From an uncultured delta proteobacterium (GTDB taxonomy: Bacteria > Desulfobacterota > Binatia > UTPRO1): a DNA stretch of 64,000 bases. The translations under genes were made by a program, and so were the position numbers. This document shows, in pieces, positions 24,587 to 28,863 of the stretch (position 1 is the stretch's first letter; every line of letters starts with the position of its first letter). The DNA lies in assembly GCA_963797545.1 (NCBI GenBank), contig CAWCPU010000003.1:203505-267504 (forward strand), written 5' to 3'. The notes below the pieces were generated by a model. It had not been told where the DNA came from. It made no database searches and saw only the letters and a list, made by a program, of their open reading frames with translations.

Positions 24587-27500
24587 TCAGCGCGCGCGCT
24601 TCGTCAGTTGGCGCAGCACCATCTGGAGAATGCCGCCGTGGCGGAGGTACTGGACCTCGATCGGGCTGTCGACGCGGGCGATGGCGGCGAAGGAGGACTC
24701 GGTGCCGTCGCCGCGACGCACGCCCACGACGAGCTCCGCGCCCGGACGGAGGTCGTCGGAGAGCCCGACGACGTCGTAGGTCTCGCTGCCGTCGAGGCCG
24801 AGCGTCATGCGGCGTGTCGCCCGGCTTGAACTGCAGCGGCAGGACGCCCATGCCGACGAGGTTGCTCCGGTGGATGCGCTCGTAGCTCTCGGCGATGACG
24901 GCCTTGATGCCGAGCAGGAGCGTGCCCTTCGCGGCCCAGTCGCGCGAGCTGCCCGGAGCCGTACTCCTTCCCCGCGATGACGAGCAGCGGCGTGCCCTCG
25001 CGCTGGTAGCGCTCGACGCGTCGAAGATGCGCATCTCCTCGCCGCTCGGCAGGTGCTTCGTCCAGTCGCCCTCACGGCTCGGCACGAGCTCGTTGCGCAG
25101 GCGGACGTTGCCGAAGGTGCCGCGGATCATGCACCTCGTGATTGCCGCGCCGCGCGCCGTAGCTGTTGAAGTCGCTTCGGCTGTGACGCCGTGCTCGACG
25201 AGGTAGCGGCCGGCGGGGCTGTCCTTCGGGATCGAGCCGGCGGGCGAGATGTGGTCGGTCGTCACCGAGTCGCCGAGCATCGCCAGCACCCGGGCGCCGC
25301 GTGATGTCGTGGAGCGGCGCCGGCTCGGGCGTCAGGTCGTCGAAGAACGGCGGCTCCTGGACGTAGGTCGACGACGCGTCCCAGGCGTACTGGCCGCCCT
25401 CGGGCACCGGCAGCGCGCGCCACCTCTCGTCGCCCTCGAAGACCGTGCCGTAGCTTTGCGCGAAGAGCGCCGGCTTGAGCGCCGACGCGAGCACCGTTCG
25501 CGCACCTCCTCGCTCGTCGGCCAGATGTCGCGCAGGAAGACCGGCTTGCCGTCGCGATCGGTGCCGAGCGGCTCGTGTGGTGAGGTCGATGTCGACGGTT
25601 CCGGCGAGCGCGTAGGCGACGACCAGCGGCGGCGAGGCCAGGTACGACGCCCGCACCTGCGGGTGGATGCGGCCCTCGAAGTTGCGGTTGCCGCTCAGCA
25701 CCGCCGCGACGACGAGGTCGTGCTCGCGGACGGCCTCGGCGACCTCCTCGGGCAGCGGCCCGCTGTTGCCGATGCAGTTGTGAACGGCGACCGTCCCCGC
25801 GACGAACGCGTGCGGGTCTTCGACCGCGAGGTCGAAGACCGGCCGCTCGCCCGCCGGGCGGCGATCCAACACCTGAAGCGCGAACATCGGCAACGTCGCG
25901 GAGAGCTTCTCGACGCAGTAGCGTTTCGCGTAGCTCCGTCTCGACCCGTGCCCGCAGCGGCGCGAACCAGTCTGCGCACTCCGAGCTGGTGAGCAGCTCG
26001 ACGGGCGACGGGAAGCCGCAGCTCTCGCGGTGCAGCGGCCGGAAGCTGCGATCTGTCCGGCTTCGGCAAGCGGCGTGAAGCGATCGTGCCCCTCCAGCAG
26101 CGAGTAGTGTGGAAAGACGATGGGCTCGCGCGCCGGCCAACTCGGTCGCCGCCACCGAGCGGGCTTCGCGGGAACGACAGCTCGGGACGCGCTCGATGCA
26201 GATCTTCGATGCGCGCCGCCATCCACAGCCGCTGGCGGTCGATCGTCCCGACCGTGCGCCAGTAGACTGCCGCCGCGCTGACCGCAACTGCCTTGTCGAC
26301 GCAGTAGCGGAACCCCACGCGCTCCACGAACGACAGGCCATCCGGCAGCTGCAGGCGCACTTCGACTCGGGGTTCACCGTCCTGCGCGGCTGGGTACGAC
26401 GAGGCGGAGCGGCGCACCGGATACTTGTAGACTTTCGCGTCATCGACGTCGACGCCACAGCGACCGAGCAGATGGATCAGCTGATCCATCATGTGCTTGA
26501 GATCGTCTGACGTGCTCCGGCTTGGCGCTCTGCGCGTAGGCGGGCGCCTCCAAGATGGCGTCGTCCTCGCATTCGCTCAGGCGCTTGAGGATGGGTGCCG
26601 TGCCGTCGGCGCCGAAGTGCCCTCCCAAGAACTCGCGCACGACGGCGACGGGGCAGCCGTCCTCGAGCACGAATGCCGGCAGCACGGGCGTCTGCGCGAT
26701 TCGCCGACCGACGCGCACGCCGGGCAGCGCGATGATCGCCTCGGTCAGCGGCTGCGGCAGCACGATCGTCCATTTGCGTTCGTCGTAGCGTGTCGCAGCC
26801 GGGCGTTTGCCGGTGACGATTTCGATGTCGTCGAGGACCGTCTCACGGTCCATGGCTTGCCCCACCGTCATTCGCCCCTGTCGTGCTGTGCTGATCGAGC
26901 CGTCACCGAGCAGGTGGCCGAGCAAGCGCGCGAACGCGAGGGTGCGCAGGCGAGCCTGCGGCGTGCTCATGTGGAGCTCGATGTCGCCCGCACGGAGCGT
27001 GTAGCGCGCCTCATCCGCACCGGACTCGTCGATCGGCGCTTCGAGACCGACGACGATGCGATCGTGGCCGGGCATCAGCGCGTCGGCGCGCACCCAGCGA
27101 CCGTCCGCGCGCAGGATCTCGTGATCCGGCGTGCAGACCAGCTCCCGACCATCCTGCAACACGAGCGAGACGCACTCGCGGACACCCTGGCTCATCGCCT
27201 CGGCCTGGAGCGCCGACGCCGAGCCCGCTATCCGGAGTCGGAGCGAGAACCACCGCGCCGCCGGCATCCGGCAGCTGCTCGATCGGGCGCGCGGTGCCGT
27301 TCGCGAGGAGCACGGGCGTGCCCGCGGCGATGCACGTGGTGCAGCCGTAGCCGACGACGTTGAACTTGAGCGCCTCGAGCGCGGGCAGCAGGCCTGCGTC
27401 TTTCAGGTAGTCGCGTCACGACGCGCGATCCGGGCGCGAGGCTGGTCTTCACGTACGGCTTGGTCGTGAGGCCGCGCTCGACGGCCTTCTTCGCGAGCAG

Positions 27501-28863
27501 CCCGGCGCTCACCATGACCGACGGGTTCGAGGTGTTGGTGCAGCTCGTGATCGCCGCGATCACCACCGACCCCGCTGTCGCTGCGAGCTCCGCCGCGCTG
27601 CCGTTGCCGCTCGTCGACCGCTGCCCGCTCTCGCTCGGCGTGCCGGCGGCGACGAACTGCTTCGCGGAAACGCGTCGTGCAGGGTCTTCCGCACGCCGCT
27701 CAGCGACGTGCGGTCCTGCGGCCGCTCGGTCCCGCGAGGCTCGGCTCGATCGTGCCAGGTCGATCTCGAGGCGCTCCGAGAACTCCGGATCCGGCGTCGC
27801 GTCGGTGCGGAAGAGGCCCTGCGCCTTGGTGTAGCGCTCGACGAGGTCGACGAGCGCCTCGTCGCGGCCGGTGACGCGCAGGTAGCGCAGCGTCTCGTCG
27901 TCGACCGGGAAGAGGGCCGCGGTCGCGCCGTACTCCGGCGACATGTTGGAGATCGTCGCGCGGTCGGCGAGCGACAGAGTGGCTCAGGCCCGGCCGCAGA
28001 ACTCGACGAACTTGCCCGACGACGCCGTGCTTGCGGAGCGTCTGCGTCACCGTGAGCACGAGATCGGTCGCGGTCGTGCCGGGCAGGCAGCGCGCCGTCG
28101 AGACGCGCAGCCGACGACCACGCGGCGCGAGCAGATAGAGCGGCTGGCCGAGCAGCACCGCCTCCGCCTCGATGCCGCCGACGCCCCAGCCGAGGACGCC
28201 GAGGCCGTTGATCATCGTCGTGTGCGAGTCGGTGCCGACGAGCGTGTCGGGAAACGCGACGACCTCGCCGTCTCTCCTCGCGACGCTGCACGACCGTGGC
28301 GAGGAACTCGAGGTTCACCTGGTGCACGATGCCCGTCCCGGGCGGAACGACGCGGAAGTTGCGGAACGCCTTCTGGCCCCAGCGCAGCAGCGCATAGCGC
28401 TCGCGGTTGCGCTCGTACTCGAGCTCGACGTTGGCGCGCGAAGGCGGCCGTCGAGCCGAAGCGTCGACCTGCACGGAGTGGTCGATGACGAGATCGGCGG
28501 GCACGAGCGGGTTGATGCCGGTCGGGATCGCCGCCGAGCCGCGTCACCGCCGACGCGCATCGCGGCGAGGTCGACGACGGCCGGGACGCCGGTGAAGTCC
28601 TGGAGGACGACCCGCGCCGGCAGGAACGGGATCTCGCACGCGCTCGCCGCCCGCGGGTCCCAGCGCGCGAACGCGAAAAGGCCGTCCTCGGTCGCGAACC
28701 CTCGCGCCTGATGCCGCGCGACGTTCTCGAGCAGGATCTTCACCGTGAACGGCAGCCGCGCGAGATCGGCCCCGGCGCGCCGCGCGAGCGCCTCGAGTGA
28801 ATGGTAGCGGACCGTCGAGCCGTGGCTCGAGAGCGTTTCGCGAGCGCCTTTCGATTCCTGCAT
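24587..28863 (-). CDS. acnA: Aconitate hydratase A (AcnA) interrupted by a 1.56-kb intein; additional frameshifts in both exteins
   Basis: N-extein: ...[58 protein letters not shown], ...[11 protein letters not shown]; C-extein: [12 protein letters not shown]...[13 protein letters not shown]...[59 protein letters not shown], ...[21 protein letters not shown]. Confidence 0.8.
25777..27334 (-). mobile_element. Intein with LAGLIDADG homing-endonuclease domain inserted in acnA between Thr and the Fe-S-ligand Cys of the GCTT|CIGNSG motif
   Basis: Block [22 protein letters not shown] directly after ...GYGCTT; block B ...[22 protein letters not shown]; LAGLIDADG motifs [17 protein letters not shown] and [15 protein letters not shown]; C-terminal block [23 protein letters not shown] followed by extein CIGNSGPL; length 1558 nt (not a multiple of 3), split over 3 or more frames. 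Confidence 0.8.

Follow-up and report, generated by a model that had tools for sequence, protein, structure and literature searches.

We analysed a 64,000-nucleotide stretch of DNA from an uncultured delta proteobacterium (assembly GCA_963797545.1, contig CAWCPU010000003.1, positions 203,505 to 267,504), referred to here at its full length as the window, in which the aconitase gene acnA is interrupted directly in front of the codon for one of its Fe-S cluster ligands. The sequence evidence points to a genuine class-1 intein, ~517 aa long, that includes a homing-endonuclease domain of the LAGLIDADG type. We regard it as likely that the element truly belongs to an intein family which is specific to AcnA and widespread, and that the sequence happens to be rich in errors here. 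The 28 single-base insertions and deletions (indels) that break the reading frame of the gene are most likely sequence or assembly errors in an insertion-biased, noisy patch, and not a property of the organism's own gene.

The limits of the gene and of its three parts were placed as follows.

24587..28863, minus strand: acnA with its intein; start ATG at 28861-28863, stop TGA at 24587-24589; frame not open as recorded
27335..28863, minus strand: N-extein; 1529 nt, ~508 codons once 9 extra bases are removed and 4 missing ones restored
25777..27334, minus strand: intein; 1558 nt, equal to 517 codons plus 7 extra bases
24587..25776, minus strand: C-extein and stop; 1187 coding nt, 395 codons after removal of 5 extra bases and restoration of 3 missing ones

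The ribosome-binding site, start and stop are all undamaged, an AAGGAG Shine-Dalgarno sequence lying 8 nt 5' of the ATG at 28863. The list of open reading frames contains none that spans 24587-28863, the ATG at 28863 opening a maximum of 182 aa, and three-frame translation finds aconitase-like and intein-like peptides spread across all three frames. In the DNA as given, both intein junctions (first base of the intein, 27334; first base of the C-extein, 25776) stand in mutually different frames. After frame correction, the N-extein (1529 − 9 + 4 = 1524 nt), the intein (1558 − 7 = 1551 nt) and the C-extein (1187 − 5 + 3 = 1185 nt) are each a multiple of three, so that the precursor would measure ~1420 aa and AcnA after splicing ~903 aa. 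Once its frame is corrected, the product displays 74% identity, across 1408 aligned codons, to the best intact homologue, P0001 (1413 aa).

An original prediction, made from the letters of the window and its list of open reading frames, had located the junction peptides, the intein (25777-27334) and the gene limits (24587 and 28863), and three-frame translation and junction mapping show all of them to be exact. It also judged the exteins to have the proper size for AcnA; the ~903-aa spliced product matches the Aconitase and Aconitase_C profiles in full. It went wrong in treating acnA::intein as a readable gene; the 28 frame breaks were overlooked and the peptides had been stitched together across frames.

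The insertion point lies between the Thr (−1) of GCTT and the Cys (+1) of CIGNSG, and the joined exteins reconstitute GCTTCIGNSG. The spliced, frame-corrected exteins match Aconitase (PF00330, E 2.5e-161) followed by Aconitase_C (PF00694, E 2.8e-42), and contain three candidate cluster-ligand cysteines.

27540-27542, minus strand: Fe-S ligand Cys 1 (ITSC), in the N-extein
27341-27343, minus strand: Fe-S ligand Cys 2 (GCTT), in the N-extein
25774-25776, minus strand: Fe-S ligand Cys 3, identical with Cys+1 (TGC), the first C-extein codon

The three cysteines align to chain positions 436, 502 and 505 of human IRP1 (2b3x), which are C437, C503 and C506, known as the three cluster ligands of that protein. 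In the cluster-less 3sn2 construct, the first two ligand positions are occupied by Ser. The alignment to IRP1 bears out the earlier claim that the intein splits GCTT from CIGNSG and that the +1 residue is the third cluster ligand.

The features expected of a full-length intein, as originally proposed, are present in the insert: Cys1, TxxH, two LAGLIDADG motifs, a terminal HN and Cys+1. Conservation of the corresponding blocks was read from a family alignment (A1) of 20 AcnA-intein members, with residues numbered by the window copy.

27305..27334, minus strand: block A; Cys1 codon TGC at 27332-27334, C1 invariant in 20/20 family members
27112..27141, minus strand: block B, T-x-x-H (T-P-D-H); T68 and H71 invariant in A1
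26893..26925, minus strand: first LAGLIDADG-like motif; D144 and G145 invariant in A1
26599..26631, minus strand: second LAGLIDADG-like motif; D243 invariant in A1, PF14528 match at residues 231-248
25777..25839, minus strand: blocks F and G; ends GTVAVHN, N517 invariant and H516 nearly invariant

We base the intein assignment on family-level profiles and on matches in the PDB. All 20 family members match PF14890 (Intein_splicing), the window copy giving an E-value of 2.7e-8 (34.2 bits vs a cutoff of 35.8), and 17 of the 20 match PF14528 (LAGLIDADG_3; best E 1.8e-6, window copy 0.097). The profile check suggested with the original prediction, against Hint and LAGLIDADG models, came out only narrowly in favour for the window copy: the splicing domain was recognized with a low E-value but a score below the cutoff, and the LAGLIDADG_3 match was weak. 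Sequence searches of the PDB matched both ends of the element to the splicing domains of the Mtu RecA and DnaB inteins, the E-values being 4e-6 to 2e-5 when the single sequence was the query and falling to 4.8e-12 with the family profile, and neither search found a PDB sequence match for the central 390 residues.

As a structural proxy, an AlphaFold model of the intein of P0001, 70% identical to the window copy, was used. Foldseek searches with this model, which is a poor one, ranked at the top a set of LAGLIDADG inteins of full length, namely TliVMA, PhoVMA, PI-SceI, PI-TkoII and PI-PfuI (E 2e-7 to 6e-5). Furthermore, a family-profile search of protein clusters returned 528 representatives at E ≤ 1e-30, many of them spanning all 517 positions. 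The five profile matches inspected were to DNA_pol_B (P0245 and P0251) and to RNA_pol_Rpb2 proteins (P0246, P0257 and P0275) (positions 1-517, E 1e-90 to 1e-145). Together, the profile, PDB, Foldseek and PolB/Rpb2 matches place the AcnA intein in a broad lineage of classical endonuclease-bearing inteins. Some of the PolB/Rpb2 relatives were seen to hold more than one intein-like stretch.

The family at this site is large. With the precursor as query, all of the top 120 protein-cluster matches were AcnA proteins, 1304-1481 aa long, in which an intein domain is present, so that at least 120 such clusters exist. The named AcnA-intein proteins are mostly from metagenome-assembled genomes (MAGs) of Chloroflexota or Ktedonobacteria, and one JGI product carries the name 'aconitase A/intein/homing endonuclease'. 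Among reference genomes (GTDB), 46 loci were found in MAGs of Planctomycetota, Acidobacteriota, Chloroflexota, Steroidobacteraceae (Gammaproteobacteria) and Eisenbacteria, and JGI metagenome contigs contributed 53 further loci. Every readable locus has the site GCTT/C...HN/CIGNSG, the strokes marking the junctions, with an intein of 509-519 aa (one of 476). A scan of viral contigs found no relative of the AcnA intein.

AcnA inteins are already machine-annotated in databases, as PF14890 matches on 'aconitate hydratase AcnA'. Searches of the open literature for a link between inteins and aconitase (aconitase, aconitate hydratase, acnA or Ktedonobacter) returned unrelated papers only, and the main text of the intein survey by Novikova et al. 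does not mention aconitase. The AcnA intein is undescribed in the searchable open literature and plentiful in databases. The original wording, 'unusual or undescribed', thus holds for the literature, but not for the sequence databases, where the element is common and machine-annotated. The window copy shares its host, site, length class (509-519 aa) and block residues with the database AcnA inteins, which include P0001 (1413 aa), P0012 from a Ktedonobacterales MAG (CP126532) and the JGI product; intein identities to the window copy are 59-79%. In contrast to the window copy, the database examples are open reading frames.

The breaks in acnA were mapped by frameshift-aware dynamic programming of the DNA against P0001. 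Of 29 frame operations in the alignment, one at 28858, upstream of the true start, is an artefact and was excluded, leaving 28 genuine single-base corrections (21 extra bases and 7 missing; insertions to deletions 3:1), with 13 in the N-extein, seven in the intein and eight in the C-extein.

24809..28554, minus strand: block of 28 frame disruptions, each position good to within a few bases
N-extein breaks: 28554, 28517, 28461, 28436, 28276, 28119, 28109, 28081, 28017, 27754, 27725, 27666, 27413
Intein breaks: 27217, 26502, 26165, 26134, 26073, 26060, 25933
C-extein breaks: 25575, 25501, 25302, 25174, 25131, 25015, 24954, 24809

An in-frame stop near 27990 (GRA*ATLS; PGLS in the other frame) is probably a further, compensating pair of indels. 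Apart from the breaks, the protein is conserved to the level of intact genes. Among 462 near-invariant columns derived from 120 intact homologues, acnA here deviates at 4, compared with 4-8 in the intact P0001-P0004, and at least two of the four deviating positions (PGLS and GVTAE) adjoin frame-break sites. Relaxation at the level of substitutions was not seen in acnA, the exteins having a G+C content at third codon positions (GC3) of 94.8%.

The character of the inserted bases was judged against the intein-free orthologue on contig L048 (86% nucleotide identity). The inserted bases (C 8, G 6, A 1 and T 1) follow the base composition, and an identical base adjoins only 4 of 17 insertions; for these two reasons we consider the insertions random rather than the result of slippage or of homopolymer runs. 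A homopolymer-type error model was rejected on the latter count. A nucleotide alignment of the window with L048 under cheap gaps, 77-79% identical, was discarded because its gaps were spurious by the hundred, and protein-level maps were used in its place.

Broken frames are also found elsewhere in the window. A codon-usage frame tracker counted 103 same-strand frame switches, against roughly 25 estimated from gene boundaries alone; its sensitivity is such that it finds 12 of the 28 known acnA breaks. The switches are dense at 2-12, 24-30, 32-42 and 48-56 kb, and the window is quiet at 12-24, 44-48 and 56-64 kb. Within the Fe-S assembly operon isc (IscS, IscU, IscA, HscB and HscA; 6050-9700, plus strand), the IscS gene (6.05-7.3 kb) is split over three frames, the frame changing from one to the next of the pieces 1-55, 56-197, 197-230 and 289-369 of the Aminotran_5 profile; IscU is interrupted by a stop in its own frame (DHY*NPRNVG), and the HscA reading also shifts frame. 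Damage like that in IscS also affects a histidine kinase gene at 50.8-52.9 kb and, at 32.8-34.8 kb, HflK/C-like genes, and a gene for 1128 aa at 45.8-49.2 kb has about 3-5 breaks and one clean stretch of 2 kb. The neighbours of acnA, namely SLT (23074-24273) and a gene for 417 aa (28988-30226), are each in a single frame relative to their L048 orthologues, with zero breaks.

That the breaks are noise is argued by the indel-only damage, the intact-level conservation, the return of all three parts to multiples of three upon correction, the excess of insertions, the random identity of the inserted bases, the intact ribosome-binding site, start and stop, and the presence of other genes broken likewise. 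A mosaic assembly or uneven polishing could have produced such patches: where conserved or repeated segments broke a short-read graph, long reads with many errors and a tendency to insertions would have supplied the sequence, or polishing would have passed the segments over. Were the breaks instead real, acnA::intein would be a dead pseudogene in a genome undergoing gene decay throughout, with IscS, IscU, the kinase and HflK/C as further pseudogenes. The concentration of breaks in some genes beside intact neighbours is indeed the pattern expected of individual gene inactivation, and IscU carries an apparent nonsense substitution. This decay is nonetheless unlikely to be the cause. There is no decay by substitution, the 4 deviations in 462 positions being the level of intact relatives and the extein GC3 still standing at 95%, and thirty independent indels unaccompanied by substitutions are unlike neutral decay. 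Bacterial pseudogenes show a deletion bias and acquire indels in nucleotide runs; the insertions here outnumber deletions 3:1 and are not of the slippage type, which is the opposite trend. Moreover, the genes hit (aconitase, IscS and IscU) are normally indispensable. The perfect conservation at the protein level despite the breaks would also fit, as the sole point in its favour, real breaks that some unfamiliar form of recoding or editing decodes, so that a functional precursor is still made. We give this next to no credence: the 28 sites have no common sequence context, +1 and −1 events are mixed, nothing comparable occurs in about 220 homologous loci or clusters, unrelated genes of the window are affected too, in patches, and we know of no such recoding or editing system in bacteria.

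A further question is whether the insert is a protein-splicing intein at all, or a different HINT element (for example, a bacterial intein-like domain) or a mimic of intein ends. The PF14890 score just under the gathering cutoff and the central domain with no PDB sequence match could be taken in that sense. Cys1, T-x-x-H, His-Asn and Cys+1 are, however, all present and invariant in the family (His516 nearly so), and the two residues that the insert separates are direct neighbours in orthologues lacking the intein, so that its removal restores an invariant active-site motif. Full-length relatives reside in the classical hosts PolB and Rpb2, and the fold search puts PI-SceI-type inteins first, making anything other than an intein very improbable. 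Several observations do weigh against our preferred interpretation, a genuine family member in a noisy patch. Taken alone, the window copy falls 1.6 bits short of the Pfam cutoff for PF14890 and its LAGLIDADG_3 match is not significant, while the model of the P0001 intein is of low confidence (predicted local distance difference test score, pLDDT, 56.5), with template modelling (TM) scores of 0.2-0.3 to the fold matches. The patch is also sharply bounded: acnA has 6.5 breaks/kb compared with zero in 2.4 kb of flanking genes, which at a uniform error rate has a probability of ~1e-7. With 28 breaks in the 4.28-kb acnA and none in the flanks, the noisy patch is something that we infer. A clean copy from the same species was not found, the searches returning only relatives at 59-71% (reference genomes) and at most 79% (metagenome contigs).

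The site is empty in the closest orthologue. When the spliced exteins were used as query, the best match (P0121, 82%) and most of those following it were without an intein, with P0001 ranking among them; more distant extein matches were named as Deltaproteobacteria, Binatia or Chloroflexota MAGs. The host lineage of the window thus has its nearest relatives among orthologues that lack the intein (P0121, 82%), together with P0001, whose exteins give 74-80%. P0121 is encoded on L048, where the gene order of the window recurs (507-aa gene, SLT, AcnA, 417-aa gene and Iso_dh), and the original suggestion to look for intein-less acnA in relatives is answered by this contig. Its uninterrupted site reads GGCTACGGGTGTACGACG/TGCATCGGCAACAGCGGGCCGCT, the stroke marking the insertion point; the downstream 24 nt are identical to those of the window and the upstream 18 nt contain 3 synonymous differences.

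Comparison of Acidobacteriota with other phyla showed the intein to be 3-11 points more similar than the exteins, whereas comparisons inside a phylum put it 2-3 points below them. P0180 (AcnA of 1338 aa) and P0189 (AcnA of 1340 aa from a Myxococcales MAG) contain same-site inteins that an internal deletion has reduced to 445 and 443 aa, respectively. Neither LAGLIDADG motif of P0189 retains its acidic residue (LHGGGVG and FGAYGEG), which suggests that its endonuclease is degenerating; this intein is missed by the precomputed Pfam annotation. In the window, the GC3 of the intein (86.1%) is lower than that of the exteins (94.8%; Fisher p 4e-8), with neighbouring genes at 89-93%, compatible with incomplete amelioration after acquisition. 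Empty sites, cross-phylum similarity, degenerate copies and GC3 together fit a homing-type life cycle and horizontal spread. At the DNA level the element belongs to a family specific to one acnA site, which would have passed horizontally between phyla of soil bacteria and which presents the stages of a usual homing cycle, with empty sites, copies of full length and degenerate ones. Homing and endonuclease activity of the AcnA intein may be expected.

Splicing would follow the class-1 route. Translation would give the precursor of ~1420 aa, in which Cys1 would perform an N-S acyl shift and Cys+1 would attack the resulting thioester; cyclisation of Asn517 would then free the intein and an S-N shift would remake the GCTT-CIGNSG peptide. 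Only after splicing would all three cluster cysteines be placed for the [4Fe-4S] centre. Aconitase activity should require splicing, because the third ligand is held 517 residues apart and is itself needed as the splicing nucleophile, and as a prediction the original claim of this dependence is sound.

In addition to Cys1, three cysteines are invariant in A1, at residues 54, 67 and 292, with C67 directly preceding the block-B Thr. Through C54, C67 and C292, splicing might be controlled by disulfide formation or by a metal. Since the Cys+1 nucleophile is itself an Fe-S ligand, and C54 and C67 are extra invariant cysteines, the AcnA intein might act as a conditional switch, in which oxidation, disulfide trapping or metal binding would hold back splicing and hence aconitase maturation; we consider this a long shot. 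If true, such a switch would make the capacity of the tricarboxylic acid cycle depend, in several soil phyla, on redox or iron status.

Most known inteins reside in proteins of replication, repair and nucleotide metabolism. The AcnA intein has as its host a central metabolic Fe-S enzyme, uses as its +1 nucleophile a predicted cluster-ligand Cys and occurs in at least 4 bacterial phyla. Among solved structures, the splicing domain (residues 1-95 and 491-517) is matched best by the Mtu RecA intein, PI-MtuI (E 1.7e-5; 4.8e-12 with the family profile), which likewise belongs to class 1, has Cys1 and Cys+1 and encloses an endonuclease; it differs in its recombinase host and in its endonuclease region, so that only the HINT part aligns. 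PI-SceI/VMA1-type and archaeal PolB-type inteins (PI-PfuI, PI-TkoII and TliVMA) have the same architecture of a HINT domain with an inserted two-motif LAGLIDADG endonuclease, but their hosts are replication, transcription or V-ATPase proteins, and the structural match is weak (TM 0.2-0.3 with a poor model).

The closest functional parallels come from mycobacteria. The mycobacterial SufB intein has an Fe-S assembly protein as its host and its splicing is needed for function (PMC8891592); SufB builds clusters and, unlike AcnA, makes no use of the +1 residue for binding one. Some mycobacterial inteins are redox-responsive (PMC6195587, PMC11377839), and the cysteine-dependent splicing of the DnaB intein of Mycobacterium smegmatis responds to oxidative stress (PMC6195587). 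Such condition-dependent splicing is, for the AcnA inteins, a proposal from sequence. The AcnA intein offers a clean system in which to ask whether splicing is coupled to redox state or iron, and how an element passes from phylum to phylum when an invariant active-site motif fixes its site. The interest lies in an Fe-S ligand serving as splicing nucleophile and in the cross-phylum spread, and not in this damaged copy.

For the window itself, patches with about 7 single-base indels/kb make gene calls and 'pseudogene' readings untrustworthy without resequencing. The contig L001, which holds the closest intein-bearing homologue and is public under 'contig_N' naming, may also contain frameshift errors. 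Its 666-aa 'Iso_dh' (6766-8766) consists of two Iso_dh genes, and the stretch linking them is rich in arginine and looks out of frame; this 'fusion', having an out-of-frame stretch of its own, is a poor reference, and the frameshift positions 43537-43124 derived from it are unreliable.

A direct repeat of 331 bp (94% identical) was observed at 30216-30546 and 42339-42667, each copy corresponding to an Iso_dh 3' end. In L048, the Iso_dh pair directly adjoins the 417-aa gene. Relative to that contig, about 11.8 kb is inserted in the window between the Iso_dh 3'-end remnant and the complete Iso_dh pair (42356-44402). No integrase was seen within the 11.8-kb insert, which encodes HflK/C-like proteins, a P-type ATPase, a phosphoesterase, and M16 and M23 peptidases.

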